Assembly: GCA_963850905.1 (NCBI GenBank)
Contig: CAWKMU010000003.1
Location: forward strand, 1,504,001 to 1,568,000
Reading direction: 5' to 3'
Source: an uncultured Gemmatimonadales bacterium
GTDB taxonomy: Bacteria; Gemmatimonadota; Gemmatimonadetes; Gemmatimonadales; Gemmatimonadaceae
DNA length: 64,000 nt
The notes beneath the pieces are model-generated. The model worked only from the letters and a program-made list of their open reading frames with translations. It made no database searches and was not told the DNA's origin. Positions 36,688 to 58,007 of the stretch are shown in pieces. Position numbers and translations under genes: made by a program. Each line of letters starts with the position of its first letter. The first letter of the stretch is position 1.

Positions 36688-36785
36688 GGACTGTATCTCA
36701 TGGGGCGATGGCAAGCCAACGGCTGCATTGGGCGAGGCCTCGCGTACACTCGGCAGATTATGAGTGGGCGCCGGCGTGTCGACGA

Positions 36786-40123: not shown

Positions 40124-40928
40124 TTGGTACCGCGCCGTCCCGAGAGCGGTAGCGCATTCTCAGACGCAGCAGATCAATGCCGGACCGAACGAAATCGAAG
40201 AATTTTACCTTTGAACCGCTCACGTCGCGCCATTCCCGAAGCGGGAGTTCTACGACCTCGTGTTCGGCATCAATGCCACAAAGACACTGCAACCGCGCGA
40301 GCATCTCCACGTCAAACGACCAGCGCGAGAGAAACGGAGATTCGAGCACGCGAGCCAGCGCAGAATCGACTCGGAAGAGCTTCGCCCCGCACTGGGTGTC
40401 GTAGACTGGAAGCCGCAGCGTGAGGGACGCAGCGGTTGCGAACACGCGTCCGGCGTAGTGCCGACGCGCGCGTCGGTCGATGGACCTGCCGAGGAGCCGG
40501 ACGCGCGCGCCAATGATCCAACGAAACTGGGGCGACGTCTCCATCACGGCCAGGAAGTCCTGCACGGCATGCAGTGGTGTGGCTAGGTCGGCATCCCAGA
40601 AGCCGGTGTAGCGGTACCCCGCGCGGACACATTCGAGCATGCCCGCTCGCACCGTCTCGCCTTTCCCCTGATTTCGCGGCTGCCGGAGCAGCGCGACGCG
40701 AGGTGCGAGCTCGGCGCTCAGTGATTCGATGAGTGCGACCGTTCCGTCCGTGCTGCCGTCATCGACGAACAGGAGATCCACGTCGGTCTGGGCCGTGATG
40801 AACGCCCGGATGCGCGGGGTGTCGAGTCGCGCGGCTTCGTTGTAGCAGGGGATGACGATACAGGTGCGCTCACCCAATGGTGACGGCGTGGCACGATCGG
40901 GTCCGGCCACTGCGTGACCGTCGGTCAT
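40113..40928 (-). CDS. GT2 polyprenol-phosphate glycosyltransferase (DPM/DPG synthase-like)
   Basis: VIPCYNEA.RL, FVDDGSTDGT, NQGKGE, FWDADLATP, YDTQCGAKLF, FDVE. Confidence 0.92.
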   Translation of the reverse strand: MTDGHAVAGPDRATPSPLGERTCIVIPCYNEAARLDTPRIRAFITAQTDVDLLFVDDGSTDGTVALIESLSAELAPRVALLRQPRNQGKGETVRAGMLECVRAGYRYTGFWDADLATPLHAVQDFLAVMETSPQFRWIIGARVRLLGRSIDRRARRHYAGRVFATAASLTLRLPVYDTQCGAKLFRVDSALARVLESPFLSRWSFDVEMLARLQCLCGIDAEHEVVELPLREWRDVSGSKVKFFDFVRSGIDLLRLRMRYRSRDGAVPNAR

Positions 40929-42790
40929 GACCTCTTGGGCCTCTCCACTCCTGGAATGCAGGGGCGCTGCTCGGCGGGGTGGCGCTCGTGCACCAGGTAC
41001 GCGACTGCGGAATCGCTGGGTGCGCCAGGCCGCTCGAGGGCTTCGGTCGCCAATCCGGAATCAGAGTCGATTCTTATCAAAGGCCAGCCGTTGTTGGCGA
41101 GGTGTGCCACGACGAGTCCCGAGTAGGAACACAACGGGCTCGACGCATCGCGGGGTGACGCACTGAGGTAGCCCCGTGCCTCGATGACCTGAAGGAAGTT
41201 GTATGTGTAAATGGCAAATCGGGGCGCACGGGGATCCAGGTATGCGGCCCGGTCCATGGGGAAGACGTACTCAATATCCGGGCGCTGTTGGTAGTGCAGG
41301 ATCGGCATGAAGTTGAGGAGGCTGGGCACGATGACGACGGCGTGCGGAGGTACCACCTTCTCGAGGCGAAGACCAGGGCGTTCGCCTGGATTGGCACTGT
41401 AGCCGGCCCAGATAGGGTATACGGCGAGCAGGGCAAACACGCTGGCCCAGACGGCCCGGAAGCGACGGTTCGATGGGGCGCGTGAGGCAGCGCTCTCGAT
41501 ATCATCGAACGCCGCGGTCGTGAGCTCCATCCCGTGTGCGAGGATGATGCTGATCCCGACCGCGGATGGCAGCATATACCGATCGACGAAGATCGGCATC
41601 ACCGCGTGCGACAGGAGGAACGCAGCGAAGGGCACACATACGATCGACGTGGCGACCACCAGCAACGGATCGTTCCTAGCCGCCGCGCGGAAACCACCCG
41701 CCCGGACGATCACAGACCCGAGTACCGCCAGCAGGATGACGAGCATGAGCAGACCACTGCTTTGCTTCAGGAGGTCACTCGTTGTTCCGCCGGTGTGTAG
41801 GAAGCGGAAGGGGAGCCAGCTGATGCCTGCTGCTGCAACCGCAATGCCGATGGCGGCGACGATGCGTTTTCGGTGCCCCGCGTCTACGATCCGACCCACT
41901 GTGGGACCACGCGTCGTGGCGAAGAAACCGCCGAGGGCAGACAGCAGGACGACCAGGATGACGACAATGGGCAGCCGGCGCATCGCGACGCCAAAGACTT
42001 CCATCAGGGCGCCCGGCGTCGGCGCCGTAAGCCACCCCTGGGGACGCGCCAGGTCAGCGGCACGTCGCAGGGACGGCAGCCACGGAATGAAGGTGGCCCA
42101 CCCCGCAAGGATCGCGGCATAGCTCGCCGGACGCCATCGACCGGCGCAGCGATCCGCGATGACCCAGGCGGCCAGGATCGCCGCGCTGTACATCGCCCCG
42201 TACACGTGTGTGTATACGAGCGCGGCGTGCGTCGCGAAGATCGCGGCCAGCAGCTTCCACGACGTTCGCTCGGGCGTGAGAACGGCACGAGCGTACAAGT
42301 ACGTCGCGAGCGCGACGAGGGCGGTGAGGAATCCGTAGAAGCGGGCTTCGGAGACGTGGTACAGCACGAGCGCCGACAGTGGGAACGCGACCAACGCGCC
42401 AACAGCGGTGGCCTGGAGCGAGTATCGGCGACGGAGTGTCAGCCAGACGAGGACGAGGGCGACGATCATCATCGCGCAGGAGGGCGCACGGAGCGCGAGC
42501 TCACTCTGGCCGGCTGCGCGCGCCCAGAGCCAGAGGAGTGTGTGGTAGAGCGGTGGCGCGCTTTCGCCGCCTGCGGCGATCGTGCCGATCATGTGTGAGA
42601 GCGACGGGTCCGCCACGAGGTTCGCGGAATTGACCTCGTCGTACCAGAAGAATTTTTTTCCGGACGTGAGCACCGAGCAGACTGCCAGCGACGTGGCGGT
42701 GATGCCGAGCAACGCCCAGTCACCCCGACTCCATTGGTCACGAGTCGGAGGAACCATCTCGTCGTGTGCAGCTTGTGGCGGGGTGGGCAT
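40925..42790 (-). CDS. GT-C membrane glycosyltransferase-like protein
   Basis: FWYDEV, PPLYH, SELALRAPS, SEARFYG, YTHVYG, FVDRYMLP. Confidence 0.78.
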   Translation of the reverse strand: MPTPPQAAHDEMVPPTRDQWSRGDWALLGITATSLAVCSVLTSGKKFFWYDEVNSANLVADPSLSHMIGTIAAGGESAPPLYHTLLWLWARAAGQSELALRAPSCAMMIVALVLVWLTLRRRYSLQATAVGALVAFPLSALVLYHVSEARFYGFLTALVALATYLYARAVLTPERTSWKLLAAIFATHAALVYTHVYGAMYSAAILAAWVIADRCAGRWRPASYAAILAGWATFIPWLPSLRRAADLARPQGWLTAPTPGALMEVFGVAMRRLPIVVILVVLLSALGGFFATTRGPTVGRIVDAGHRKRIVAAIGIAVAAAGISWLPFRFLHTGGTTSDLLKQSSGLLMLVILLAVLGSVIVRAGGFRAAARNDPLLVVATSIVCVPFAAFLLSHAVMPIFVDRYMLPSAVGISIILAHGMELTTAAFDDIESAASRAPSNRRFRAVWASVFALLAVYPIWAGYSANPGERPGLRLEKVVPPHAVVIVPSLLNFMPILHYQQRPDIEYVFPMDRAAYLDPRAPRFAIYTYNFLQVIEARGYLSASPRDASSPLCSYSGLVVAHLANNGWPLIRIDSDSGLATEALERPGAPSDSAVAYLVHERHPAEQRPCIPGVERPKRS

Positions 42791-43938: not shown

Positions 43939-46863
43939 ATGCTGACAAAGCGACGAAAGACGAGACGTCAACTTGATGTCCAGCATCAAGTGTCAGCAGC
44001 ACGCGTGTACTGGATTACCGGATTGTCGGGCGCTGGCAAGACGACCGTTGGACGCGAGTTGGTGAAGCGCCTGCATGCGGCTGGTCGCCCAGTCATTTTC
44101 CTCGACGGCGATGCGTTGCGCGCGGCGATCGCGGAAGATCTCGGCCACACTGCTGCCAACCGCCGTCGATCGGCAATGCGCAACGCGCGGCTGTGCCACT
44201 TGCTTGCTGCACAGGGTACGGACGTCGTGTGCGCCACGATCTCGCTGTTGCACGAGGTCCAGCGGTGGAATCGGGAGAACATCCCCGGCTATCGGGAGAT
44301 CTACCTTCAGGTCCCGATGGAGGAGTTGCGGCGTCGGGATAGCAAGGGCATCTACGCCCGGGCCGAGTGTGGCGATGCGCGTGACGTCGTTGGTCTTGAC
44401 GTGCCCGCGGAGGCTCCGGAGGCGCCCGATCTGGTCCTCGACAATTATGGGGCGCTCGACGTTGTGACGGCGGTCGAGCGCATCTTGGCGGTATGCGGCA
44501 CGCCGAATGGCAAGCGTGCTGGAACGCCCCTGACGCGTGTCGTCGCGTTCAAAACGAAGGCAGAGTCGTTGGAAGCGCTGGCGCCCGTGCTGCGGAATGG
44601 GCGGGTCCTGCCACAAGTCCGATTCTCCGTTGCCGCCTGGCGCTCGGACGCCGCTGGCGTGTTGGCTTCGATCAATGCGGCGCCGTGGGGTTCGGGTTCC
44701 GTCATCGTGCGGAGCAGTGCACGGAGCGAGGACGGCGCCACGAGCTCTCAAGCCGGGAAGTACGATTCCCAACTCGGCGTCGCCGGCATCGAGGCAGTGG
44801 CACAGGCCATCGACCGGGTGGTTGCCTCGTTCGCAGACGAGGGCGATGACGACGACCAGATCTTCGTGCAGCCGATGCTCGACCGCGTCGCCATGGCCGG
44901 AGTGGCCTTCTCCCGCAATCCCAGTGGTGGCGCCTATTTCGTCATCAATTACGACGACCGTTCCGGGCTCACGGATCGCGTGACGGCCGGCGTCGGGTAC
45001 AATCTCGAAACTTTTTTCTGTCTCAAATCGCGTCCGGAGGCGTGCCCGGCTTCGCTGGTGCCGGTGATCGCGCTCGTGACCGAGCTCGAGAGTCTCCTAG
45101 CGTGCGACGCGATCGACGTGGAATTTGCGATCGGCGAAGACGGGCAGTTGTACCTGCTCCAAGTCCGCCCGCTCCTCGTGGACCGCCGGGGACAGGTGGC
45201 CGACAAGGAGATCGACGCCGCAGTCGCCGATGTCGCGCGCAAAGTCGAGCTCCTCAGCCGCCCGCACCCGTACCTGCACGGCAGCCGGACGATATTCGGG
45301 GTCATGCCGGACTGGAACCCTGCCGAAATCGTCGGAGTGCGGCCCTATCCCCTCTCGTTGTCGCTCTATCGCGAGCTGATCACCGACGCGATCTGGGCGT
45401 ATCAGCGTGACAACTACGGGTACAAGAACCTTCGCAGTTTCCCGTTGCTGGTGAGTTTTCACGGACTGCCGTACATCAATGTGCGTGTGAGCTTCAACTC
45501 GTTCATCCCACACGACGTCCCCGACGATCTCGCCGGCCGGCTGGCGAACTACTACATCGACCGACTCCTTGCCGAGCCGCATCTCCACGACAAGGTCGAA
45601 TTCGAGATCATCTTTTCCTGCTACACGCTCGATTTGCCGAAGCGAATCGCGACGCTCGCCGAGCACGGGTTCTCTTCGGACGACGTGGCCGAGCTCTCGA
45701 CCGCTTTGCGGCGTCTCACCAATCGGATCATACACGGCGACACCGCACTGTGGCGGCGGGATCGCGCCAAGATCGACCTATTGGCACAGCGTCTTCCGGT
45801 GATCTGCAACGCCGACATCGACAAGGTCGGCCGCATCTACTGGCTGATCGAAGACTGCAAGCGATACGGCACGCTACCCTTTGCGGGTCTCGCGCGGGCG
45901 GGTTTCGTCGCGGTCCAGCTGCTCCAATCGTTCGTCGACGTGGGCGTTTTTAGTGCCGATGAACGTGCGACATTCATGGCGAGCGTCGATACCGTCGGAT
46001 CGCGGATCGGGCACGACTTTGCGCGTCTTCCCAAGGCGGACTTCCTCGCGCGCTATGGCCACCTCCGGCCGGGCACGTACGACATCCTATCTCCCCGCTA
46101 CGACGAGGCACCCGACCTCTATTTCGACTGGTCGAGCGCGCGACCGACGTCGCCCCCGCCGCCTCGTTTCGCCCTGTCGATCGAGCAGCTGCGCCGCATC
46201 GAGCACCTGCTCAAGGAGCACGAGCTCGACATCGACGTCTTGAGCCTGATCGAGTTCATCAAGGCCGGCATCGAGGGTCGCGAATACGCGAAGTTCGTCT
46301 TCACGCGCAGTCTGAGCGACGCGCTGACGTTGATCAGGCGGCTGGGCGAGGATCATGGTCTGTCGGCGGAGGATTGCGCGTTTCTGAGTTACGATGCCAT
46401 CCGCACGCTCTATAGCGAGAGTTGCTCGGTGCGAGAGGCGTTGCTGGAGAGCGTCGCCCACGGCCGGGAGCGGCACGCGCTCACACGAAGTCTGGTACTG
46501 CCGCCCCTCATCGCGTCGGCAGAGGATGTGTTTGCCTTTCACCTGCCGCCGAGTCAGCCCAATTTCATTACGCGCAAGAGCGTTACCGCGCCGGTGGCGT
46601 CGCTCAGCGACCCTCCCGAAAGCTTCGCCGGACGCATTCTGTTCTTGCCGAGTGCAGATCCGGGCTTCGACTGGATCTTCACGCGTGGCATCAGCGGATT
46701 CGTCACGCAATTCGGCGGCGCCAACTCACATATGGCGATCCGCGCCAGTGAGCTCGGCATCCCTGCGGTGATCGGGGCCGGTGAGGCCATGTATCAGCCG
46801 TGGAGTGTCGCGCACACGCTGTGTCTGGACTGCACGAGCCAGAGGGTTTTGGTCATCGCATGA
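43939..46863 (+). CDS. Fusion of an APS-kinase-fold cytidine diphosphoramidate kinase (Cj1415-like) and an L-glutamine kinase (Cj1418-like)
   Basis: N-terminal WITGLSGAGKTT, LDGD, RRDSKGIY; then TKAESLE, IVRSSA..ED....S.AG, LLQVRP, GVMPDWNPAEI.G, HDKVEF, YGHLRPGTYDI, ADPGFDWIF, GGANSHMAIR; start may be GTG 43990. Confidence 0.85.
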   Translation: MLTKRRKTRRQLDVQHQVSAARVYWITGLSGAGKTTVGRELVKRLHAAGRPVIFLDGDALRAAIAEDLGHTAANRRRSAMRNARLCHLLAAQGTDVVCATISLLHEVQRWNRENIPGYREIYLQVPMEELRRRDSKGIYARAECGDARDVVGLDVPAEAPEAPDLVLDNYGALDVVTAVERILAVCGTPNGKRAGTPLTRVVAFKTKAESLEALAPVLRNGRVLPQVRFSVAAWRSDAAGVLASINAAPWGSGSVIVRSSARSEDGATSSQAGKYDSQLGVAGIEAVAQAIDRVVASFADEGDDDDQIFVQPMLDRVAMAGVAFSRNPSGGAYFVINYDDRSGLTDRVTAGVGYNLETFFCLKSRPEACPASLVPVIALVTELESLLACDAIDVEFAIGEDGQLYLLQVRPLLVDRRGQVADKEIDAAVADVARKVELLSRPHPYLHGSRTIFGVMPDWNPAEIVGVRPYPLSLSLYRELITDAIWAYQRDNYGYKNLRSFPLLVSFHGLPYINVRVSFNSFIPHDVPDDLAGRLANYYIDRLLAEPHLHDKVEFEIIFSCYTLDLPKRIATLAEHGFSSDDVAELSTALRRLTNRIIHGDTALWRRDRAKIDLLAQRLPVICNADIDKVGRIYWLIEDCKRYGTLPFAGLARAGFVAVQLLQSFVDVGVFSADERATFMASVDTVGSRIGHDFARLPKADFLARYGHLRPGTYDILSPRYDEAPDLYFDWSSARPTSPPPPRFALSIEQLRRIEHLLKEHELDIDVLSLIEFIKAGIEGREYAKFVFTRSLSDALTLIRRLGEDHGLSAEDCAFLSYDAIRTLYSESCSVREALLESVAHGRERHALTRSLVLPPLIASAEDVFAFHLPPSQPNFITRKSVTAPVASLSDPPESFAGRILFLPSADPGFDWIFTRGISGFVTQFGGANSHMAIRASELGIPAVIGAGEAMYQPWSVAHTLCLDCTSQRVLVIA

Positions 46864-47462
46864 AGGCCGTGGCCGTCACCCAGCGGGTAACGATCGTTCC
46901 AGCCTATGGCGAGCGCCGTGACTCTTTGGATCAAGCATGGACGAGGTTCTTGGCTGCCTGCGGACTGCTTCCCGTGTTGCTCCCGAATGTCACCGAGGTG
47001 GCGCTGGCCATGTGCGAGAGGGCGGGCATCGGCGGGTTGTTGTTGACCGGAGGTAACGACCTGGCGGTGCTTGGCGGCGATGCCCCGGAACGCGACGCCG
47101 TGGAAAGTGCCCTGCTCGATCTGGCCGAGCAGCGTCGCCTGCCGGTCTTGGGTGTCTGTCGCGGTATGCAAGTGATTCAGCAGCGGTTCGCGGTTCAACT
47201 ACGGCGCATCGAAGGGCATGTGGCGCAACGTCAGGTGATCCGAGTCGACGGCGACTCACGAGAGGTCAACAGCTACCATTGCTTTGGCGCAGTTGACTCG
47301 AAACCGCCGCTCAATGTCTGGGCGGTCGCGGACGACGGCGTCGTCAAGGCGATCCGACATTCGACCCGACCCGTGACCGGGATCATGTGGCACCCGGAGC
47401 GCGTGGTCCCGTTCGCGCCGGCGGACGTGCAGCTCGTCCGACAGGTGTTCGGAGTCACATGA
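46860..47462 (+). CDS. Gamma-glutamyl-CDP-amidate hydrolase (Cj1417-like, class I GATase / peptidase C26)
   Basis: ERRDSLDQAW, LTGGND, LGVCRGMQ, VNSYH, GIMWHPER; ATGA overlap with the upstream gene. Confidence 0.85.
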   Translation: MKAVAVTQRVTIVPAYGERRDSLDQAWTRFLAACGLLPVLLPNVTEVALAMCERAGIGGLLLTGGNDLAVLGGDAPERDAVESALLDLAEQRRLPVLGVCRGMQVIQQRFAVQLRRIEGHVAQRQVIRVDGDSREVNSYHCFGAVDSKPPLNVWAVADDGVVKAIRHSTRPVTGIMWHPERVVPFAPADVQLVRQVFGVT

Positions 47463-48238
47463 TCCGCGCCGTGATCCTCGCGGCCGGCCGCGGCAGCCGC
47501 ATGGGCCATCTGTGTGATGACCGTCCCAAGTGCCTGGTCGAGCTCGGAGGCAAACGGTTGATCGAACGCCAGATCGCTGCGCTGCGGCGCGGTGGCGTAG
47601 ACGAGATTGGCGTTGTCCGCGGCTACCGCGCAGAGATGATCACCAGTCCGAGTCTTTCCTATTTCGCCAACGACCAATGGGCCGAAACGAACATGGTGAT
47701 GTCACTGGCCACGGCCGCTCGCTGGCTGCGGTCAGGGCCGGTCATCGTGAGCTACGCGGACATTTTCTATCGTAGCGAGCTGGTACGCAGCCTGGTCGCG
47801 GCTCACGGGCGACTGGTCGTCACGTACGACCGAGACTGGCGCCGGCTGTGGACGCGTCGTTTCGCCGATCCTTTGGCCGATGCCGAAACTTTTCGGACCG
47901 ACGGCGAAGGCCGGTTGCTGGAGATCGGCGGCAAGACGTCGCGCATCGAGGAGATTGAGGGGCAGTACATGGGCCTCTTGAAATTCACTCCACCAGCGTG
48001 GAGTGCGGTCGAGGGCTTGCTTGGTGTGCTCGAGACGCCGATTCGCGATCGGCTCGATCTGACAGGACTGCTGCGCCGGCTGCTGGCGGCACGCGAGCTC
48101 CCAATAGGGGCGCTTTCCACCGATGGTCAATGGGGCGAAATCGACAATCCGGAAGACGTAGCGTTGTACCAGCGCATGGTCACTGCAGGCGAGCTCCGCC
48201 TCGAGGAGACGTCTGACAGTGAGGTGATGCCACAATAA
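47459..48238 (+). CDS. CTP:phosphoglutamine cytidylyltransferase (Cj1416-like, LicC family)
   Basis: VILAAGRGSRM, PKCLV, WAETNM, VSYADI, DPL.DAETF, GQYMGLLKF, GEIDNPED; ATGA overlap. Confidence 0.85.
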   Translation: MIRAVILAAGRGSRMGHLCDDRPKCLVELGGKRLIERQIAALRRGGVDEIGVVRGYRAEMITSPSLSYFANDQWAETNMVMSLATAARWLRSGPVIVSYADIFYRSELVRSLVAAHGRLVVTYDRDWRRLWTRRFADPLADAETFRTDGEGRLLEIGGKTSRIEEIEGQYMGLLKFTPPAWSAVEGLLGVLETPIRDRLDLTGLLRRLLAARELPIGALSTDGQWGEIDNPEDVALYQRMVTAGELRLEETSDSEVMPQ

Positions 48239-48302
48239 TGGCGATGCGTTCCGAGCCCACCGTGACAACTTCCGACCAGAGGGGTTGCCAGTGTCAGTAA
48301 CG

Positions 48303-49070
48303 ATGAAACACGGCGATTTCACGCAGGTAGCCGGCGATTACGCCCGGTTTCGGCCGAGTTACGCGCCCCAGGTCGCGACTGCCATCCTCCGTTACGTCGG
48401 GCGGGACCCAGCCAGCATCAATGCGGCCGACATCGGCGCCGGAACCGGCATTTGGACGCGGATGCTCGCAGCGCAGGGTCTGCATTCCATCGTCGCCGTG
48501 GAACCAAATGCCAACATGCGTGCGCAAGGGATCGAGACCTCGCGGGGGAGCGACATTGTGTGGCGCGATGGTTCGGCCGAAGCGACGGGATTGCCGGACC
48601 GGTCAGCCGATCTTGTCAGTATGGCGTCGTCATTTCACTGGGCCGATTTCGACAAGGCCTGCGACGAATTTCACCGTATCCTGCGGCCGGGTGGCGTCTT
48701 CGTCGCCTTGTGGAATCCGCGTCTCATCGAGGTGAACCCATTGCTCGTCGAGATCGAGGCGCAGATCACGCGGCTCAAATCTGACGTGCGCCGTGTATCA
48801 TCAGGCCGCTCTGGCATCACCGAGCGGCTGACCGATATGCTGAGCGAGAAACCGCAATTCGCTGAGGTGCTGTATCTCGAAGGTAGGCACCGCATGTCCC
48901 AGACGCCGAATCAGTATCTCGGGGCGTGGCGCTCGGTGAATGATCTCCAAGTGCAATTGGGCCCTGAACTATTCCGGAAGTTCTTGGAATTCACCGAGGA
49001 GCGCGTGTCAGGTCTGACGGCTATCGAGACAACCTATGTGACCCGGGCCTGGATCGTGCGGCGCGCCTAG
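48303..49070 (+). CDS. Class I SAM methyltransferase (Cj1419/Cj1420-like candidate phosphoramidate O-methyltransferase)
   Basis: MKHGDFT, RPSY, DIGAGTG, VEPN, MASSFHW, WNPR, RVSSG, WRSVND; operon context. Confidence 0.8.
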   Translation: MKHGDFTQVAGDYARFRPSYAPQVATAILRYVGRDPASINAADIGAGTGIWTRMLAAQGLHSIVAVEPNANMRAQGIETSRGSDIVWRDGSAEATGLPDRSADLVSMASSFHWADFDKACDEFHRILRPGGVFVALWNPRLIEVNPLLVEIEAQITRLKSDVRRVSSGRSGITERLTDMLSEKPQFAEVLYLEGRHRMSQTPNQYLGAWRSVNDLQVQLGPELFRKFLEFTEERVSGLTAIETTYVTRAWIVRRA

Positions 49071-49181
49071 GCGGGCTCCTCCGCGGTAGATCTATCCGCG
49101 AAGCTCTGAGTCGCCTGGCTTGCCCACAGCGATCACAGGAAGTGCGGGCTGGCGGCTCCGTCGGCAAAGTTGAGCGTGTCC

Positions 49182-50213
49182 TCACCTACTCAGACGATAG
49201 CCGATATTCTCAATCCTTTTTTGGGTTTCCGCATTGAGATCATGCATAAAGCTTCTGAATCGAGGAACCTTCTCTTCAACAGCCAAAAAGCCGTACGGCT
49301 TGCTCCTCGGACGGGCCAGACATAGGCGGCTCACATCAAGATCGACTGACATGACTTCGACGATCTTAGAAAACTCCTTGACCGGATCGATCATGAAGTC
49401 CTCGAGCCGCAACGAGAGGGTCGCGGATCGGATGTAAAGCTCCGTCTCCTCAACAAATTCCGGGAACGACAAGAATGGCGGGCCTGGTGCGGCTGCGAAG
49501 AAACGCGGGTCCCCTTCGGCAAAGGCCTTGAATTCCGAAAAATTCTGGTCCAAATCGAGACACAGATCGTCAGCGTTTTTGTACACCTGCGTGATCCCGG
49601 GGACCATGGCTTTGTCGCGAACATACCTCCGCCAGAAGACCCAATTCGTCAGCAACGAATCCAGCGGGTGCCGGTAGACGAAGATCAGATCGGCAATGCG
49701 CGACTGGACCGCCTCCAATACACGGCTCGTCAACTCTGGCAACGCCTGAGCGCGAGACACGTATTTGATCGTGGCGTGTTCGGTGTAGATCATGGACGTC
49801 GGAAGTGGACGAAATCGCATCTCATGCCGGAGATATTTCGCCCGTTCGCCAATGTGCTGCAGCAGCAGTTCATAGACATACCAACGCCCACTGCCGAACA
49901 GTCCGACGAGATACGCTGTTCTGTCGTTCCCCGGATTATGGAGTTTCCAATACCAGTCCTTATTCACCAACCGGTGGCGAACGCTTTCCAGATGGTCGCG
50001 AGGGGTTTTGCGCGCGAATTCTGCCCAGTTCTCGCGCACGCTTCGCAATTTGTCTTGGCGCGATTTCCCGGTGAATCTGATGAGCCTTCGAAATACGGAT
50101 GGCCGCATCCGCTCCGGGCGGCCGCGAGCGCCCTTGTACGTTGATCTTACCCCTCCGTCATGGTCGACCCACGCCACGGCGTTCTTGGCCGACGGTGTCG
50201 TGTGGTCGCTCAC
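49182..50213 (-). CDS. Sulfotransferase-fold protein
   Basis: LVGLFGSGRW (PSB-loop-like), FVYRHPLDSL (3'-phosphate-binding-like), LRLEDFMIDP. Confidence 0.6.
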   Translation of the reverse strand: MSDHTTPSAKNAVAWVDHDGGVRSTYKGARGRPERMRPSVFRRLIRFTGKSRQDKLRSVRENWAEFARKTPRDHLESVRHRLVNKDWYWKLHNPGNDRTAYLVGLFGSGRWYVYELLLQHIGERAKYLRHEMRFRPLPTSMIYTEHATIKYVSRAQALPELTSRVLEAVQSRIADLIFVYRHPLDSLLTNWVFWRRYVRDKAMVPGITQVYKNADDLCLDLDQNFSEFKAFAEGDPRFFAAAPGPPFLSFPEFVEETELYIRSATLSLRLEDFMIDPVKEFSKIVEVMSVDLDVSRLCLARPRSKPYGFLAVEEKVPRFRSFMHDLNAETQKRIENIGYRLSR

Positions 50214-50619
50214 GGGCGTGGCCTCATGTCAGCCCGACCGGCCGCGGCTCCCTTTGCGCGGCCCCTTCTGGTGTCAACCATGCTCAGCCTCTCCGCACGT
50301 TTCGTGCAGGCGCAAGCGTGGGCGGAAGTCAAGCGAATACAAGTGGTTACGCCGTTTGATACCCTAATCACCTCGCGGAATATGCTGCATGAACCCCACA
50401 CGATCGATGGCGATGTGCTGCGCGCTCGCGCGCGCCATCGCGGAGCCTATCGACTGGTGCGCTTCGTCGCCGCGCAGCAGCCGGTGCCGCCCGACGACGC
50501 GTGCAGCGTCGTGGCAGGCACGACGCCGCTGATGCTGATCGCCGCTCATGCTTGTCACGCCGCGCGGATCGAGGAGACGCGTCGTTGCAGAGTGGCGACT
50601 CAATTGCCAGAGCGCGAGG

Positions 50620-51900
50620 ATGATGTTGCGAGAGGCCAGTAACCGGGGCGTGCTAGTCGGTGGTGGTGCGCCTGACGGTCCGTCATCACTCGTCAGGCGG
50701 GCCAAGCCGCTGCGGGTTCTCTACGTCGAAGCGAACGAGGATGGCACCGTCGGGGGGTCCCATCAACTTGTTTACGATCTCGCACGCAGTGTACCCCGAG
50801 ATCGCATCGATCCCGTCGTACTGTTTTATCAGAACAATGCGTTCGTGGACCGTCTGAGGAGCCACGGGGTCACTGTCCTGTTGTACGACCACTTGCGCGT
50901 GCGCGAGCGCGCGGTCAATGCAACTGGAGGGCTTTTGCGCAGGCGTGCCGAGCAGGTCGCCGCCATCGGGAGGCGCTTCCAGCTACTTCGTCAGCAAAAT
51001 ATCGGTCTGGTCCACCTGAACAATTCCCCGACCGTCGGAGTCGACGACTGGCTGCCGGCTGCGATATGCGCCAACACGCCATGCGTGGTCAACGCGGGCG
51101 GTCTGCTCGGTCGGGATCGTCGCTTCATCCATCGGGCCTTAACGCGGCGCTTTGCGCGGGTGATCGCTGTGAGCGAATACATGGCGGCCGCGCTCCGCGA
51201 GCGCGGTTATCCGGAACGCCAGATCGAATGCGTGAATCTGTCCGTCGACATCGCGCGGTTGCAATCGAGAGTCTCGGCGTCGCGGACCGAGATTCGCACG
51301 AGCCTGAACATACGGCCTGACCGAGTTGTCATCACGATGGTAGGCAACGTCCGACAGTGGAAAGGGCAGCATGTCCTGCTGGAGGCAGTTGAGCTGCTCC
51401 TGCCGGCGGTCCGGGAACGCGTCCATGTGCTATTCGCCGGCGCGGTGTCCGAGGCCGATCGTTCGTATTTCGCCCATCTGCAACAGATCGTTGAGCGCGC
51501 GCACCTGGGCGACAGAGTTCAGTTTCTTGGTGCCCGGGACGACGTTGCTGATCTCCTCGCCGCGTCGGATGTTGCAGTTCACGCGTCGATTCTGCCGGAG
51601 CCATTTGGGCTCGTAATCATCGAGGCAATGGCGCTCGGGACTCCGGTGGTCGCGGCGCGGCTCGGAGCACCGCGCGACATCGTAACCTCGGCATCGGGCC
51701 TGTTGTACGATCCAGAGTCACCACGCGAGTTGGCAGAGCGGCTTACAGAACTCGTGTTGGACGCGGACCTTCGAAAACGTTTGGGCAAAGGCGCGATCGA
51801 TCGAGCCAAGGATTTCGGAGTCGTGCGCTACATCTCGCAGATAATGGCCGTGTACGAGAAGGTAGCACCCGCGCGTGATGACGAGCGTCTGATCGTTTAA
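50620..51900 (+). CDS. GT4 glycosyltransferase
   Basis: GG.H, WKGQHVLLEA, FLGARDDV, PEPFGLVIIEAMALGTPVV. Confidence 0.92.
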   Translation: MMLREASNRGVLVGGGAPDGPSSLVRRAKPLRVLYVEANEDGTVGGSHQLVYDLARSVPRDRIDPVVLFYQNNAFVDRLRSHGVTVLLYDHLRVRERAVNATGGLLRRRAEQVAAIGRRFQLLRQQNIGLVHLNNSPTVGVDDWLPAAICANTPCVVNAGGLLGRDRRFIHRALTRRFARVIAVSEYMAAALRERGYPERQIECVNLSVDIARLQSRVSASRTEIRTSLNIRPDRVVITMVGNVRQWKGQHVLLEAVELLLPAVRERVHVLFAGAVSEADRSYFAHLQQIVERAHLGDRVQFLGARDDVADLLAASDVAVHASILPEPFGLVIIEAMALGTPVVAARLGAPRDIVTSASGLLYDPESPRELAERLTELVLDADLRKRLGKGAIDRAKDFGVVRYISQIMAVYEKVAPARDDERLIV

Positions 51901-52042: not shown

Positions 52043-52146
52043 CCGCGACAACGGCAAACCCGGCGAAAGCCGGCGACGCAAAGCTCTGGAGGCTACCGCT
52101 CACGCAGCAACACCGCGTGAGTCATGCCAGTCCGGCTACCGAACGG
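52043..52146 (+). ncRNA. c-di-GMP-I riboswitch 2
   Basis: GGCAAACCCGGCGAAAGCCGGCGACGCAAAGCTCTGGAGGCTAC..CTCACGC/GCGTGAG..ATGCCAGTCCGGCTACCGAA. Confidence 0.92.
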
Positions 52147-52168
52147 ACAACTCACAGAGGACACAGCC

Positions 52169-53524
52169 ATGCGCACTGCGCACGACTGGGGCCGAGCTAT
52201 AGGCCGTCCCCGCACGTCCGCACCGGTAAGCCGCAAGTCGTACTACTTCCGCGCGATCGTCTGCGGCGCAGCTGCGGCACTCGCTGCCTGCGACAACTCC
52301 GCGAAGAACACCACCAATCCAATGGATCCGGTCGCCGCGAGTGGTAGCGGTACCTTCCAGGACGAAGCGGTCCTCGTGATGTATCACGGTGTGGCGTACC
52401 CGCAGGTCAACGTGAAGCCCTCGGCCAACGTCGACATGAAGGTCGGCGAACAGTCGACGTTTACGGCGCGCTTGAACGAGCCCAGTGGCGACGCGTGGAC
52501 CTCGTGCTGCTCGACGTGGAAGAGCTCTGATGCGAGTGTCGCGTCGGTGAGCGTCACGGGTTACGGTGTTCGCGATGGCGAGCGCGGAGCCGTTGTCGCG
52601 CACAAGTCGGGCAAGGCGACGATCACGGTTACGACGCAGAGCGGAACGAAGGGGACGCTGGATGTCACTGTTGGTGATGGCTCCTCTGGAACCGGCTCCG
52701 GTGGCTCGAGCTCCGGCGGCAGTGGCGGGTCAGGCGGCGGCTCTGGGTCACCCCCCTCGAAGACCCCCGCGAAGAGTCCGACCGCGCCACCACCCAGCGG
52801 CAGCTACCATGAGCCGTCGGGCTTCGCGACGCAAATCAACACCGGGTCGATCTCATCGACGCGTGCGGTGAACGTCCTCACCCCGTCGTCGACCAGCCCG
52901 ACTGGTGGCTCGAGCGGAAATCTCACCGCCGCGCCCGGAGGCGGTCTCCGTATGTGGTACCGTCCGAACCTAGTGGCGGGCAACTCGCCGGTCCGATTTG
53001 GGTTCGACATCCCGTCATCGGGAAGCGGCTGGTACTATCAGCGAATGCAGGTCCGTTTCTCCTCCAACTGGACCAACGGGAATAACCCGCTCGTCAAGTT
53101 GTGCGAGCCGCGAACCATGCAATCCGGCAGCCCCACGGGTCCAGACGAGAACCATGTCATCTCGGCATTCGCCAGCGGCGCGCCGACCAACGGCTATCTG
53201 GGGGTGCTGTTGCAGGGTCCCGACAACCATTTCAGGGATCTGACCGAGGAGTCGGCCGGCATGGGGAATCTGAGTGACGGGAATTGGCACACAGTGGAAG
53301 TGCTCTTCAGCCCAGAGTCGTCACCCGGTGCTGGAAATGGCAGCTACCAGGGGTGGGTCGACGGCAAGGAGGTCGCCAACTATCGCAACGTCCAGTGGCT
53401 CGCGGCGGGGAACCGAGCGGGTTGGCCCTACCTGATGTTCGATCCGGTCTACGGGGGAACGAAGAGCGCCCCAGCGCACACCATGTACTGGGACGTCAAC
53501 AACATTTTCGTGGCTACACGCTAG
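52169..53524 (+). CDS. Lipoprotein: one Big_2 Ig-like domain, G/S/P linker, lyase/lectin-like C-terminal domain (paralog 1)
   Basis: AGAGGA RBS, LAAC lipobox, WKSSDASVASV..GKATITVT, WHTVEV..GNGSYQGWVDG..MYWD. Confidence 0.8.
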   Translation: MRTAHDWGRAIGRPRTSAPVSRKSYYFRAIVCGAAAALAACDNSAKNTTNPMDPVAASGSGTFQDEAVLVMYHGVAYPQVNVKPSANVDMKVGEQSTFTARLNEPSGDAWTSCCSTWKSSDASVASVSVTGYGVRDGERGAVVAHKSGKATITVTTQSGTKGTLDVTVGDGSSGTGSGGSSSGGSGGSGGGSGSPPSKTPAKSPTAPPPSGSYHEPSGFATQINTGSISSTRAVNVLTPSSTSPTGGSSGNLTAAPGGGLRMWYRPNLVAGNSPVRFGFDIPSSGSGWYYQRMQVRFSSNWTNGNNPLVKLCEPRTMQSGSPTGPDENHVISAFASGAPTNGYLGVLLQGPDNHFRDLTEESAGMGNLSDGNWHTVEVLFSPESSPGAGNGSYQGWVDGKEVANYRNVQWLAAGNRAGWPYLMFDPVYGGTKSAPAHTMYWDVNNIFVATR

Positions 53525-53546
53525 TTCGTAGCACCTGACGCGACAT

Positions 53547-53581
53547 AAGAAGGGCAGGTCGAACTACGACCTGCCCTTCTT
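53547..53581 (+). terminator. Terminator-like hairpin after paralog 1
   Basis: AAGAAGGGCAGGTCG-AACTA-CGACCTGCCCTTCTT perfect stem. Confidence 0.75.
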
Positions 53582-53837
53582 GCATCGCACAGAAGATCCG
53601 ACGCCGATTGTTGCACGACGCAGCACTCAGCGCGATGCCGGGTCGCGACGCGACGTAGTGAACCCGTGACGCGCATCGGTGAGAATGGACGTTGATCAAC
53701 TCGGTCGCGCGGATGATGTGTTGACGTCAAACGTTTTGTCGCGACTCACTCGCGTGCGCGCACATCAACGAACTCCATGCGATGCCCCACTGAACGCGCT
53801 TCTGAGACGAACCCAGCGAAAATCTTTCGTAAAGGGG

Positions 53838-53866
53838 TTGCGTATCAGACTGTTGATGGGCATCGT
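53838..53866 (+). promoter_or_regulatory. Sigma70-type promoter of lipoprotein paralog 2
   Basis: TTGCGT-17 bp-CATCGT. Confidence 0.65.
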
Positions 53867-53910
53867 ACGCGCGACAACTGAACGTCGCGCTGGTTGTCCA
53901 GTGTGGGCAC

Positions 53911-54013
53911 CCGCGACAACGGCAAACCCGGCGAAAGCCGGCGACGCAAAGCTCTGGAGGCTACCGCTCACGCACGCTGCCGCGTGAGCCACGCCAGTCC
54001 GGCTACCGAACGG
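53911..54013 (+). ncRNA. c-di-GMP-I riboswitch 3
   Basis: Near-identical to riboswitch 2, with a different distal loop. Confidence 0.92.
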
Positions 54014-54035
54014 ACATCTCACAGAGGACACAGCC

Positions 54036-55388
54036 ATGCGCATTGCGCACGACTGGGGCCGAGCTTCGGGCCGTCCCCGCACGTCCGCCAAGGTAAGCCG
54101 AAAGTCGTCCTACGCCCGCGCGCTGCTATGTAGTGCAGCGGCTGCGCTCGCAGCGTGCGACAATTCCCCGAAAAGCGCCGCGAATCCGACGGATCCAGTC
54201 AACGCGATGGGTTCGCGTGAGAATGAGGCGGTTGGCACAGAGGTTCGCGGCGTGGCCTACCCACTGGTCACCGTGAAGCCATCGGCTAGCGTCGACATGA
54301 GTGTCGGCCAGCAGTCGACGTTCTCGGCACTGTTGAGCGAGCCGAATGGGAATTCATGGACGTCGTGCTGCTCGACGTGGACGAGTTCCGATGCGAGTAT
54401 CGCGTCGGTAAGCGCGACCGGCTACGGGGTTGAGGATGGCGAGCGTGGGATTGTTGTCGCGCACAAAGCCGGTACCGCAACGATCACGGTCACGACTCAA
54501 AGCGGAACGAGCGGCACGCTGAACGTCACCGTCGGAAGCGAGTCATCTGGGTCAGGGTCTGCTGGTGCCAGCTCCGGCGGCACTGGTGGCTCGAGTGGTG
54601 GCTCGGGGTCGGGTGGGACGCCAACGGCGAGTCCCTCGCCACCGCCACCGAGCGGTAGCTACCACCAGCCGTCGGGTTTCGTCCAGCAGGTCAATATGCC
54701 ATCGATTACATCGACTGCAGCGTTTTCCAACTTCAGTCCTACCAGCACCAGCTCGACCGGCCAGTGGAGCGGGAACCTGACTACAGTGCCTGGCGGATCC
54801 GGGTTGAGGATTACGTATCGCCCGAACCTCATGGCTGGAGGGTCTCCCGTCCGCTTCGGAATCTCTCTGGCATCAGCCGGATCGGGTTGGTACTACCAGC
54901 GCATGAAGATTCGCTTCTCGTCGAACTGGACGAATGCAAATAACCCGGTGGTGAAACTGTGCGAGCCCCAAACGGAGCAGGAGGGCAATCCGGCGGGGCC
55001 GGACGAAAACCATGTCATCTCGGCATTCGTCCACGCCGATCCGACTCAGAGCTACCTGACCGTTCTGTTGCAAGGCCCTGATAGCCACTTCCGGGATCTG
55101 ACAGAGCAACCGGTCGCTAACCCGGCTGCAAACTTGAGCGACGGGAATTGGCACACGATGGAGGTGCTGTTCGGTCCCGAGTCGTCGCCGGGTGCCGGGA
55201 ACGGAACGTACACCGGGTGGGTCGACGGCACGCAGGTCGCAAGCTACACCAACGTACAATGGCTCGCGGCCGGGAACCGAGCGGGTTGGCCGTACCTCTT
55301 GTTCGATCCGGTCTACGGCGGCATGGACAGTAGCCCGCCGTACATCATGTACTGGGACTTCGACGCCTTGTACGTCAGCACGCGCTAA
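54036..55388 (+). CDS. Lipoprotein: one Big_2 domain plus lyase/lectin-like domain (paralog 2)
   Basis: Colinear with paralog 1; LAAC lipobox, WTSSDASIASV, GWYYQRM, ENHVIS, FDPVYGG. Confidence 0.8.
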   Translation: MRIAHDWGRASGRPRTSAKVSRKSSYARALLCSAAAALAACDNSPKSAANPTDPVNAMGSRENEAVGTEVRGVAYPLVTVKPSASVDMSVGQQSTFSALLSEPNGNSWTSCCSTWTSSDASIASVSATGYGVEDGERGIVVAHKAGTATITVTTQSGTSGTLNVTVGSESSGSGSAGASSGGTGGSSGGSGSGGTPTASPSPPPPSGSYHQPSGFVQQVNMPSITSTAAFSNFSPTSTSSTGQWSGNLTTVPGGSGLRITYRPNLMAGGSPVRFGISLASAGSGWYYQRMKIRFSSNWTNANNPVVKLCEPQTEQEGNPAGPDENHVISAFVHADPTQSYLTVLLQGPDSHFRDLTEQPVANPAANLSDGNWHTMEVLFGPESSPGAGNGTYTGWVDGTQVASYTNVQWLAAGNRAGWPYLLFDPVYGGMDSSPPYIMYWDFDALYVSTR

Positions 55389-55394
55389 ATGTCT

Positions 55395-55457
55395 CCCGGA
55401 CAACAATCCTATAGCATGTACCGGGACGTCGATCAGATCCTTGTCAGCACGCGCTGA
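55395..55457 (+). pseudogene. Remnant 3' end of a further paralog copy
   Basis: 55408-55457 matches the last 50 nt of paralog 3 (57958-58007) at 44 of 50 positions, including the stop. Confidence 0.75.
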
Positions 55458-55496
55458 TCGATGGCGCGGTCGGTGACCGTGGCACGTTAGAAGTTG

Positions 55497-55533
55497 GCGA
55501 GGGAGCAGGTCAAACATTGACCTGCTCCCTCGC
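55497..55533 (+). terminator. Terminator-like hairpin after paralog 2
   Basis: GCGAGGGAGCAGGTCAA-ACA-TTGACCTGCTCCCTCGC; shares the GCAGGTC/GACCTGC core with 53547-53581. Confidence 0.75.
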
Positions 55534-55992
55534 GCTCTTTCGCGACACTTGTCTCACTGCGGTTCGACGTTGCGAAACCGTCTCAAGACCCGCTGCTTTC
55601 CGGCGACCGCGAGGTCGCCGACACCAGCGGGTGAGTGCCGCCTCCGACCACCGGTTGACATCGGCCGGCGCGGGTATCTCGCGCACCGTTCCCAACCGAC
55701 CTCTCCAGTCGTCGCTCTTCCGCGCTCGACTAGCGGGATTCCCCGCCGATCGGCACGGCTAAGGGAGGGTGCGAAGCCAGTTCAGCGGACAATTTGACTG
55801 ATCGTAGGCCTACGCCCCCATTAATAGGGGCTGGCGCTGTTGAGTCCGCTTGCTTACGTTAACTGGTAGCAAGGCTTTGGGGACGGTCGCCCGGCTGGCT
55901 CGATGTCAGGTCAAACCGCCCGACCCCAACCACGGACCGAGCAAGCGGGAGACTTCTAGATCACAGAAATGATCGCGGTGCCCCCCGAGGGC

Positions 55993-56094
55993 CTGCGACA
56001 AAGGCAAACCCGGCGAAAGCCGGGGACGCAAAGCTACGAGGCTACGGTCTGCCCTCAGAGTCGGGCATGCTATGCCAGTCGGGCCGCCGAACAG
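55993..56094 (+). ncRNA. c-di-GMP-I riboswitch 4
   Basis: GGCAAACCCGGCGAAAGCCGGGGACGCAAAGCTACGAGGCTAC..TGCCC/GGGCA..TATGCCAGTCGGGCCGCCGAA. Confidence 0.92.
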
Positions 56095-56108
56095 AGCTGG
56101 AGGGGATC

Positions 56109-58007
56109 ATGGACGCTGCGATCAAACATCGCAGGCTGGCGGTCGCCGCCATCTGTCTCGTGGTGGCGGGTGGCTTTGCATGCTTCCGAGGCGACTCCCT
56201 CGTCGACCCCCCGGGGACAGCAGGCTACCGACCTCCCGACCCCCACGTAACCGCTATCACGCTCGCGCCGACTTCAGTCAATGCGCCGACGGGCGCTCAA
56301 GTCCACATTTCGGCTGACCCTATTGGCCCTTCTGGCGCTCCCGTGGCGGCCGATGTCGTCGCTTGGGTGTCGTCCGACCCCGATGCCGCAACTGTGTCGG
56401 GCTCAGGGATGGTCTCGCTACTTCACCGGGGCAAAACGACGATTACCGCCATCGCGGACGGAGTGACGGCGTCCGTCGCAGCCGTGGCCGAGGCACCGCT
56501 GGCGGCTTCGATGACGGTCACGCCGAGCACCAGCTTGATCGAGGCGGGTCAGCAGGTGCAGCTGATCGCGGTCGCGTACGATGCAACCGGTTCCGTCGAC
56601 TCCGGCGTGACGGTAACTTGGTCGTCCTCAAACACGGGAACGGTATCGGTGTCCAGCGGGGGTCTGGTGACGGCGATCGCGGTCGGCGTGGCAACCATTA
56701 CGGCGTCATCCGGCAGTGTGCGCTCGACGGCGACGATCCAAGTCACCTCCTCTACACCCGCAGTGGCGACGGTATCGGTCGCGCCGAACACGTCGTCGCT
56801 TTATCCTGGGAGCAATGAGCAGTTGACGGCTACGCTAAAGGACGCGGCGGGCGACATCCTGGGTGGCATCCCCGTAGCATGGTCGACATCGAGCGCGGGT
56901 GTTGCTTCCATTTCCGCTAGCGGTGTCGCGTTGGCGAACGCCATCGGATCGGCAACCATAACTGCGACTGCTGGTGGACACAGCGGCACCGCGACAGTGG
57001 ACGTCACGGCTCCGGTCGTCGCGTCGGTGTCTGTCAACCCCAGTTCTGGAACGATTAGCATCGGGCAAATCGAGCAATTCACGGCCACTCCCCTCGACGC
57101 CCAAGGCGCGCGGCTGAGCGTTCAAGTTTCGTGGAGCTCTAGCGACCCGAGCATGGCGTCGGTGTCGGCGAGCGGCGCCGTAACGGGTGATGCGGCGGGA
57201 TCGGTCAGTATCACCGCATCAGCAGGCGGCGTCACCGGCGCCGCGGCGGTGACGGTGCAATCGGGGCCGCCTGGTGGGTACCACGAGCCCTCAGGCATGG
57301 CGACTCAGATCAACACGGGGCCGATTACGTCGACGAGCGTGGTGACCACCTTCAGCCCGTCCACGATGACCTCTACCGGTGAGTGGATTGGGAACCTGAG
57401 TCTTGTGCCGGGAGGGACTGGCCTTCGGCTGACGTACACCACGAGCCTCGCGGCTGGCAACTCGCCGGTGCGCTTTGGCCACGGAATCGCGTCCGCGGGG
57501 ACGGGTTGGTACTATCAGCGCATGAAGGTCCGTTTCTCGTCGAACTGGACCAACGGGAACAATCCAATCATCAAAATGTGTGAGCCGCGGACCGAGCAGA
57601 CTGGTAGCGGTACGGGGCCCAACGAGAACCATGTCATTGGCGGCTGGGCCGGCAGCGCTCCCACCAAGAGCTATCTAACGGTGTTGTTGCAAGGCCCGAA
57701 TAACAATTTCCGGGACCTGATCGAACAGCCGCAGAGTAATCCTCAAGCGAATATGAGTGACGGGAACTGGCACGTCATGGAGGTGCTCTTCGGTCCCGAG
57801 TCATCCCCGGGTGCCGGCAATGGGACGTACCAGGGCTGGGTCGACGGCGTGCAAATCGCGAATTACACCAACGTGCTCTGGCTCGCGCCCGGCAACAATG
57901 TCGGCTGGCCATACCTCATGTTCGACCCGGTGTACGGTGGGACCAAGAGCAGTCCGCCCTATACCATGTACTGGGACGTCGATCAGATCTACGTCAGCAC
58001 CCGCTGA
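56109..58007 (+). CDS. Lipoprotein: four Big_2 domains plus the same lyase/lectin-like domain (paralog 3)
   Basis: GGAGGGG RBS, FAC lipobox, four W.SS...A/VSV...G.V repeats, C-terminal domain YHEPSG...YVSTR. Confidence 0.82.
   Translation: MDAAIKHRRLAVAAICLVVAGGFACFRGDSLVDPPGTAGYRPPDPHVTAITLAPTSVNAPTGAQVHISADPIGPSGAPVAADVVAWVSSDPDAATVSGSGMVSLLHRGKTTITAIADGVTASVAAVAEAPLAASMTVTPSTSLIEAGQQVQLIAVAYDATGSVDSGVTVTWSSSNTGTVSVSSGGLVTAIAVGVATITASSGSVRSTATIQVTSSTPAVATVSVAPNTSSLYPGSNEQLTATLKDAAGDILGGIPVAWSTSSAGVASISASGVALANAIGSATITATAGGHSGTATVDVTAPVVASVSVNPSSGTISIGQIEQFTATPLDAQGARLSVQVSWSSSDPSMASVSASGAVTGDAAGSVSITASAGGVTGAAAVTVQSGPPGGYHEPSGMATQINTGPITSTSVVTTFSPSTMTSTGEWIGNLSLVPGGTGLRLTYTTSLAAGNSPVRFGHGIASAGTGWYYQRMKVRFSSNWTNGNNPIIKMCEPRTEQTGSGTGPNENHVIGGWAGSAPTKSYLTVLLQGPNNNFRDLIEQPQSNPQANMSDGNWHVMEVLFGPESSPGAGNGTYQGWVDGVQIANYTNVLWLAPGNNVGWPYLMFDPVYGGTKSSPPYTMYWDVDQIYVSTR

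Follow-up and report, generated by a model that had tools for sequence, protein, structure and literature searches.

A sulfotransferase-fold protein as the candidate terminal transferase of a mobile phosphoramidate cassette

The Cj1415–1418 enzyme set converts glutamine, ATP and CTP into CDP-phosphoramidate 3'-phosphate, and a 2025 paper on this route still terms the compound the 'likely donor' (PMC11800397). Cj1418 was once annotated as a PEP synthase/PPDK (PMC10971088). In the MeOPN transferase 06810, the C-terminal domain is DUF2972 (PMC5808241), and no evidence for MeOPN transfer other than that from knockouts was found in the literature searched. Unmethylated phosphoramidate occurs in the LPS of Xanthomonas and Shewanella (PMC3907429), and pathway genes are carried by Borgs, in a report in which no mention of a sulfotransferase was found (bioRxiv 2024.11.05.622173). 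Moreover, no link between phosphoramidate transfer and the sulfotransferase fold was found in the mostly open-access texts searched; the primary enzymology may draw the analogy with PAPS.

Here, a 64,000-nucleotide stretch from an uncultured Gemmatimonadales bacterium (the window) was analysed, in which a Cj1415–1418-like operon faces a gene encoding a candidate phosphoramidate transferase (Table 1). The operon corresponds to the Cj1415–1418 set by family matches and gene set, and the activities named for it are predictions from sequence. Its fused kinase gene scored 175 bits against NF004041 (cut-off 127), which we take to be a model of Cj1415-like CDP-amidate 3'-kinases, and 925 bits against NF004508 (cut-off 501), presumably a model of Cj1418-like L-glutamine kinases. 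In 35 of 37 relative loci, the APS-kinase and PPDK-like domains likewise form one fusion protein. The top NCBIfam match of the amidotransferase was NF045546 (E = 1e-32), with 114 bits, below the cut-off of 250. The GT4 gene on the far side of the candidate belongs to a surrounding polysaccharide region of the PEP-CTERM/XrtA type, in which the window encodes GT4, GT2, GT-C, deacetylase and FemAB-like proteins. Ahead of the operon, positions 34951–42790 hold four consecutive GT-C/PMT_2 membrane glycosyltransferase-like ORFs and one GT2, of which 38519–39199 and 39302–40123 may be a single gene split by a frameshift. Beyond the GT4 gene, 52124–58007 encodes three consecutive Ig-like (Big_2) proteins; two of the three are lipoprotein-like and near-paralogous, and one gave a weak polysaccharide-lyase match.

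Table 1. Features of the phosphoramidate locus (window coordinates unless a locus is named) and transferase-slot genes of distant clusters
Feature	Position	Strand	Basis
APS-kinase-fold domain fused to PPDK-like domain	43939-46863	+	PF01583, PF01326, PF00391; NF004041, NF004508
Class I glutamine amidotransferase, Cj1417-like gamma-glutamyl-CDP-amidate hydrolase (predicted)	46800-47462 (start probably ~46860)	+	NF045546
Nucleotidyltransferase, Cj1416-like phosphoglutamine cytidylyltransferase (predicted)	47387-48238 (start probably ~47459)	+	PF12804; Cj1416 label from operon context
SAM methyltransferase, candidate for O-methyl group	48285-49070	+	PF08241; putative role
Candidate phosphoramidate transferase	49182-50213	-	ORF, 343 aa, GTG start; sulfotransferase fold
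Candidate's basic, partly amphipathic helices	residues 39-92	-	predicted structure
Candidate's catalytic domain	residues about 95-343	-	predicted structure and profile
Altered 5'-phosphosulfate loop GLFGSGRW, G104-W111	49881-49904	-	conservation in 120 relatives
His146, probable general base	49776-49778	-	120/120 relatives, end of strand 142-145
3'-phosphate-binding motif Y180-T189 (YRHPLDS = 180-186)	49647-49676 (YRHPLDS 49656-49676)	-	conservation, profile alignment
GT4 glycosyltransferase, divergent from candidate	50548-51900	+	Pfam/NCBIfam matches
TagF-like/CDP-alcohol phosphotransferase genes, distant clusters	L085:12491-13801; L088:4080-5231; L094:13925-15007; L097:7984-9216; L098:14338-15000

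As stated in the preliminary description of this DNA, the candidate gene converges on the operon, since its stop and that of the methyltransferase gene lie 111 bases apart on facing strands. A sequence search returned 979 relatives at E ≤ 0.001, and the closest 119 besides the candidate itself are 55–75% identical to it, indicating that the candidate is a real gene. The encoded protein has no transmembrane segment (highest 19-residue hydropathy 0.98), and a scan of 48900–50800 detected no promoter or terminator. The gene had been described as more AT-rich than its neighbours, and this held: its GC content is 0.555, compared with 0.61–0.64 within the operon and 0.62 in the flanking GT4 gene, and none of 2,211 long ORFs of the genome, chosen heuristically in a way that favours high GC3, has a GC content of 0.555 or less. 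As a sign of a recent separate arrival, the AT-richness did not stand. In each of the 37 linked loci compared, GC content was lower in the candidate gene than in the gene for the kinase (mean −0.105), so a recent separate transfer was rejected in favour of a trait of the family; GC3 was likewise lower in 37 of 37 (mean −0.16), and thus the bias does not come solely from amino-acid composition. The host genome (4.49 Mb, 82% complete) carries a second family copy (G000:C3:684413-685450; L080:10414-11451) with 57% identity and a GC content of 0.62, which lies far from the operon and outside any glycan locus, next to genes for a Ser/Thr kinase and a phosphoesterase-family protein.

The candidate protein alone matched no Pfam or NCBIfam family, and single-protein searches of Pfam, NCBIfam, PADLOC and PDB sequences gave nothing useful; its assignment therefore rests on fold and family profile. 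PF00685 and PF13469 matched neither the protein nor any protein of its genome, and among 45 scanned relatives they gave weak matches in four, one of them above the cut-off. An AlphaFold model was built from 38 sequences (pLDDT 82.9; residues 1–42 poor). All 37 Foldseek matches listed for this model were sulfotransferase-fold enzymes (best E = 7e-6), as were the top 20 of the VIA structure search (best Z = 13.3, rmsd 3.1, 193 residues aligned, 14% identity). Nucleotide kinases scored Z = 7–8.7 in the same search, below the sulfotransferases, which also cover more of the candidate domain. In addition, a 22-sequence family profile matched PDB sulfotransferases (best E = 2.4e-6), and a weak profile match to shikimate kinase was obtained across the loop (E = 0.21). 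In the Atlas feature search, the nearest clusters included Sulfotransfer_1 families at 0.95, and a 65-member unnamed cluster of Nucleocytoviricota (giant-virus) proteins scored 0.96. By its predicted structure, the candidate is a sulfotransferase-fold protein, in line with the outcome of the fold comparison that the preliminary description had proposed.

Conservation was assessed in the 120 closest proteins, including the candidate, and in a broad set of 27. Arg181 is invariant in the 120, and position 189 is Thr in 108 and Ser in 12. The family profile aligns RHPLDSLLT with the 3'-phosphate motif RNP.D...S of SULT2A1, and the spacing of Arg181 and Thr189 is eight residues, the same as that of Arg177 and Ser185 in SOT18. 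His146 was present in 120 of 120 and in 27 of 27, and by the topology of the model it is the probable equivalent of the catalytic His of sulfotransferases. Gly109, Arg110, Arg181, Glu256 and Glu271 were also kept throughout the broad set, which includes distant members. The glycine-rich loop is equally constant, as Gly107, Gly109, Arg110 and Tyr112 were each found in all 120 proteins, with position 111 variable. This loop differs from that of SULT1A1, TYPKSGTT (PMC6969939), and from that of SOT18, in which Lys93Ala and Thr97Ala each abolish activity (PMC5482895). With the register set by eye, the catalytic Lys is replaced by Gly (Gly107), the first Thr by Arg, and the second Thr by a variable residue, so that a TYPKSGTT-type 5'-PSB loop, with its catalytic Lys/Arg and its Thr-Thr pair, is absent from the candidate family. 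In the same register, Tyr112 sits at the position of the base-stacking Trp. Arg110, three residues after Gly107, corresponds to the Walker A Lys. Fold search and conservation thus bear out the earlier observation of sulfotransferase-like motifs with the 3'-phosphate motif kept and the loop altered. The loop G-x-x-G-x-G-R is also in register with the Walker A motif of the kinase encoded in the operon, except that Arg replaces Lys. The Walker A pattern GxxxxGK[ST] itself is not matched, because GxxGxGR is followed by a variable residue and no conserved Ser/Thr. In Walker A kinases, the residue after the Lys binds Mg.

The genomic association of the family with the phosphoramidate pathway was evaluated in 79 GTDB loci around the best 80 of 153 confirmed relatives, and a locus was called linked when at least two core pathway genes lay within 10 kb. 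Linkage was found in 44 loci; in 10 there was a single cassette gene or only a fragment, and in 25 there was none, and among loci of at least 19 kb, 31 of 48 were linked. Metagenome loci were linked in 34 of 80 cases, and in 20 of the 28 that were at least 9 kb long. The candidate gene was convergent with the operon in 33 of the 44 linked GTDB loci, on the same strand in eight (six downstream, two upstream) and divergent in three. A methyltransferase homolog was present in most linked loci at shifting positions. These four arrangements and the moving methyltransferase indicate that there is no single frozen gene order. Hosts of the relatives include Acidobacteria, Verrucomicrobia, Eremiobacteraceae, Solirubrobacteraceae and an alphaproteobacterium. 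Furthermore, among 401 genomes of one Acidobacteria class, a sample centred on a genome chosen as a carrier, 16 had a glutamine-kinase-like gene, 15 had the candidate family and 13 had both; two of the three kinase-only genomes carry a distant kinase clade, and the third is cut at a contig end. Homologs thus co-occur with the pathway genes, the association that the preliminary description had suggested examining, although these counts overstate it, since kin are not independent.

For 33 of the 35 unlinked loci, the source genomes (29 in all) were also searched, and a glutamine-kinase-like gene was found above the cut-off in 21, with partial matches in three and none in five. In these five genomes, which are incomplete MAGs, neither a cytidylyltransferase nor a close kinase domain was found (two gave matches of 31–36% only). 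Over 38 loci, the pairwise identities of kinase and candidate correlated (rho = 0.52, 0 of 999 shuffles). The two trees differ in detail, as expected with paralogs; they were built from 38–39 rows with FastTree and midpoint rooting, are poorly resolved and show no donor lineage. In the window's phylum, the kinase was found in 2 of 301 genomes and the candidate family in one, the window's own, and this rarity suggests that the cassette was probably acquired sideways by the window's lineage.

Several associated genes and domain fusions were observed in the relatives. An inositol-monophosphatase/CysQ-family gene lies beside the cassette in six loci (e.g. L012:16633-17511; L013:2246-3061; L023:9036-9917) and could perhaps clear or recycle a 3',5'-bisphosphate by-product. 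Two linked loci encode a Sulfotransfer_3 protein with Arg at the catalytic-Lys position, divergent from the kinase fusion (L065:15468-16838; L071:6370-7749). In P0123, a methyltransferase, a coiled coil and a GT2 are fused to the candidate domain, and in P0125 and L027:8728-9711 repeated amphipathic or coiled-coil units precede it. A BrxC/PglY-like ATPase is fused to the domain in 93 protein clusters of about 950–1010 aa (P0124, P0252-P0343; L074:7855-9237), and the Walker A motif is kept in 86 of the 92 clusters checked. This fusion was not found in the window's genome.

A conventional PAPS-dependent sulfotransferase that modifies the same surface polymer and merely accompanies the cassette, with Arg110 substituting for the missing Lys, would account for the fold, the 3'-phosphate motif, the retained His and the proximity of Sulfotransfer_1 families in the Atlas search. 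The supply of PAPS was surveyed in 34 carrier genomes, 29 of which had been picked as kinase-positive. ATP sulfurylase was found in 21 of them (CysD in 13, Sat in 8), which is compatible with such an enzyme, whereas 13 had neither sulfurylase, and in the window's genome (82% complete) no CysD, Sat or second APS kinase was found in searches whose controls were positive. Likewise, the pathway was not found in 5 of the 29 genomes behind unlinked loci, one of which (G010) has two candidate-family copies together with CysD; against this, the candidate gene tracks the glutamine kinase in 13 of 15 genomes of the Acidobacteria class, and the loop residues that SOT18 needs for activity are not conserved. 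In the window's genome, no other transferase candidate for the cassette was found. Sulfotransfer_1, Sulfotransfer_3 and TagF-like genes were not found in it (82% complete; control searches positive). No DUF2972 match was found among 30 ORFs of window positions 29.9–63.5 kb, in agreement with the earlier statement that no Cj1421/Cj1422-like transferase is recognisable in the window, and a canonical transferase elsewhere in the genome, which the preliminary description had raised as a counter-argument, was not found either, PF11186 and NF058596 giving no match genome-wide in searches where neither obtained a positive control match. Taken together, we consider a PAPS-dependent sulfotransferase, which the preliminary description had named as a possible refutation, unlikely.

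A protein that binds the donor and hydrolyses or senses it, in house-cleaning or regulation and with no transfer to an acceptor, would fit the cassette flanks, which have no conserved acceptor-making gene, the several paralogs per genome with their unlinked copies, and the fusion to a BrxC-like ATPase. It would, however, leave the cassette without any transferase; moreover, P0123 joins the domain to a methyltransferase and a GT2, and paralogs also fit differing acceptors, as with Cj1421 and Cj1422. We regard this explanation as quite improbable. The least probable, in our assessment, is an ATP-dependent P-loop kinase acting on a sugar or a pathway intermediate, such as a chain-terminating kinase, because the Walker-A-like register, the shikimate and nucleotide kinase matches and the coiled-coil fusions, which resemble chain-length rulers, are set against a variable position after Arg110, an invariant 3'-phosphate motif and His, and the higher scores and broader coverage of sulfotransferases.

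Based on the fold, the conserved residues, the pathway linkage and the lack of a detectable PAPS route, the candidate probably transfers phosphoramidate from 3'-phospho-CDP-amidate. It would carry out the last step encoded by a mobile phosphoramidate cassette of five genes, whose operon would form L-glutamine phosphate and, successively, CDP-glutamine amidate, CDP-amidate and 3'-phospho-CDP-amidate, as published for Cj1415–1418. This last compound is shaped like PAPS, with PO2(NH2) replacing sulfate. In the proposed mechanism, Arg181 and Thr189 would bind the 3'-phosphate, the Gly-rich loop would bind the alpha-phosphate, and the base would pack against Tyr112. His146 would deprotonate the acceptor hydroxyl for in-line transfer of PO2(NH2), and Arg110 would steady the phosphoryl transition state, substituting for the lost Lys, with cytidine 3',5'-bisphosphate as the leaving product. 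The methyltransferase would probably add the O-methyl group.

If the candidate is a phosphoramidate transferase, its most likely acceptor, which we favour somewhat over all others, is a cytoplasm-facing lipid-linked surface glycan, and the neighbouring exopolysaccharide of the window may be that acceptor. A flank scan covered 117 of 141 picked ORFs in 39 of the 44 linked loci (three near-duplicates and two flankless loci omitted), and glycan-type genes were found in 12 of the 39 loci, mobile-element genes in about six, and mixed genes in the rest. The cassette is self-contained and mobile, and its context does not fix the acceptor. Because many copies of the cassette are found away from glycan loci, and because the domain is joined to a BrxC-like ATPase in a large clade, DNA or protein might also serve as acceptor. 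That phosphoramidate transfer from a PAPS mimic is generally performed by the sulfotransferase fold, also in the uncharacterised DUF2972 domain of the Campylobacter transferases, appears to us about evenly balanced; its combination with a non-glycan acceptor, with P–N groups placed on DNA or protein in phage defence, is unlikely.

The transferase slot was further examined in distant glutamine-kinase clusters, three from genomes and 8 of 13 plasmid matches. It was occupied by TagF-like genes in four, a CDP-alcohol phosphotransferase in one, other sulfotransferase-like domains in three (all Azospirillum) and nothing assignable in three. With a broad HMM of the candidate family, no member was detected in clusters L085–L089 or L092–L099. 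Four of the five TagF-like/CDP-alcohol clusters showed no 3'-kinase in the stretch seen and may therefore use unphosphorylated CDP-amidate; none of these four had a sulfotransferase-fold gene. The three Azospirillum clusters all have a 3'-kinase, and their sulfotransferase-like domains belong to other subfamilies, two of these domains being seen by eye only. A strict rule that 3'-kinase clusters always use the sulfotransferase fold was rejected, since G245, with a TagF-like neighbour, and Smac51, with two unnamed 413-aa neighbours, have a 3'-kinase and no recognised sulfotransferase-fold gene. In two Azospirillum plasmid clusters (L092:6638-9178; L099:6639-9155), an APS-kinase-like domain follows, in the same protein, a region of 650 aa that shows sulfotransferase-like motifs by eye at its start, where there is no Pfam match. 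A TPR protein of another Azospirillum phosphoramidate cluster (L093:16651-18894) has, by eye, a C-terminal lysine-less sulfotransferase-like loop and a 3'-phosphate motif. The Agrobacterium distant-kinase cluster lies among small-molecule biosynthesis and export genes.

A relation to the Campylobacter transferases was suggested by the Atlas search with residues 90–343. When six sulfotransferase Pfam families were skipped, 28 of the 30 nearest named clusters were DUF2972 (Campylobacterota) at 0.91–0.92, and the next family scored 0.86; 135–138 of 256 features were shared, below the 170 typical of one family. The tool is uncalibrated for protein parts, and we treat this alignment-free resemblance as a lead, independent of the gene-neighbourhood evidence.

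The catalytic domain of this family is small (about 250 residues) and soluble, and it comes from soil bacteria that are not pathogens. Since the residues to mutate can be named and all donor-making enzymes are encoded alongside, the transfer step can be reconstituted. If the proposal is true, it would explain why the pathway spends ATP on a 3'-phosphate, and a sulfotransferase fold would perform phosphoryl transfer by means of a kinase-like loop. Moreover, some annotated sulfotransferases would not be sulfotransferases, and phosphoramidate chemistry would extend to 13 of 401 genomes in the sample of one Acidobacteria class.

Compared with known enzymes, the candidate combines features of several groups. 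TagF-like (PF04464) and CDP-alcohol phosphotransferase (PF01066) proteins occupy the same slot beside distant glutamine-kinase-like genes, with folds unrelated to that of the candidate. With P-loop kinases such as APS kinase, shikimate kinase and dephospho-CoA kinase, it shares the GxxGxG-basic loop and a core at Z = 7–8.7, but it has Arg for Lys, no conserved Ser/Thr next to it, and sulfotransferase-specific motifs in addition. PAPS-dependent sulfotransferases (SULT7A1, 5x2b; SULT1B1, 2z5f; StaL, 2ov8; SOT18) share the fold, the 3'-phosphate Arg...Ser/Thr pair, the probable His and the post-loop aromatic residue; the candidate differs from them in the loop (Lys to Gly, Thr to Arg), in matching neither PF00685 nor PF13469, and in belonging to a family linked to phosphoramidate genes rather than to cysDNC. 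The closest functional parallel is with Cj1421 and Cj1422 of Campylobacter jejuni (DUF2972, PF11186; NF058596), which likewise are genetically associated with a Cj1415–1418-type donor pathway, appear to act in its last step and often occur as several paralogs. The candidate matches neither the DUF2972 nor the NF058596 model, and its family, about 290–345 aa long with no membrane segment, contrasts with the 596 positions of NF058596 and with the MeOPN transferase architecture of N-terminal region, TM helix and C-terminal DUF2972 (PMC5808241). In contrast to Campylobacter, its hosts are soil Acidobacteria and others, with 3'-kinase and glutamine kinase combined in one protein. The candidate would thus work like Cj1421 and Cj1422 from outside their sequence family, with a loop unlike the PAPS loop of sulfotransferases. 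The earlier idea of a sulfotransferase repurposed for phosphoramidate transfer is supported in its transferase part, as a predicted activity; as to origin, the protein may instead be a distant counterpart of DUF2972 rather than a one-off repurposed sulfotransferase.
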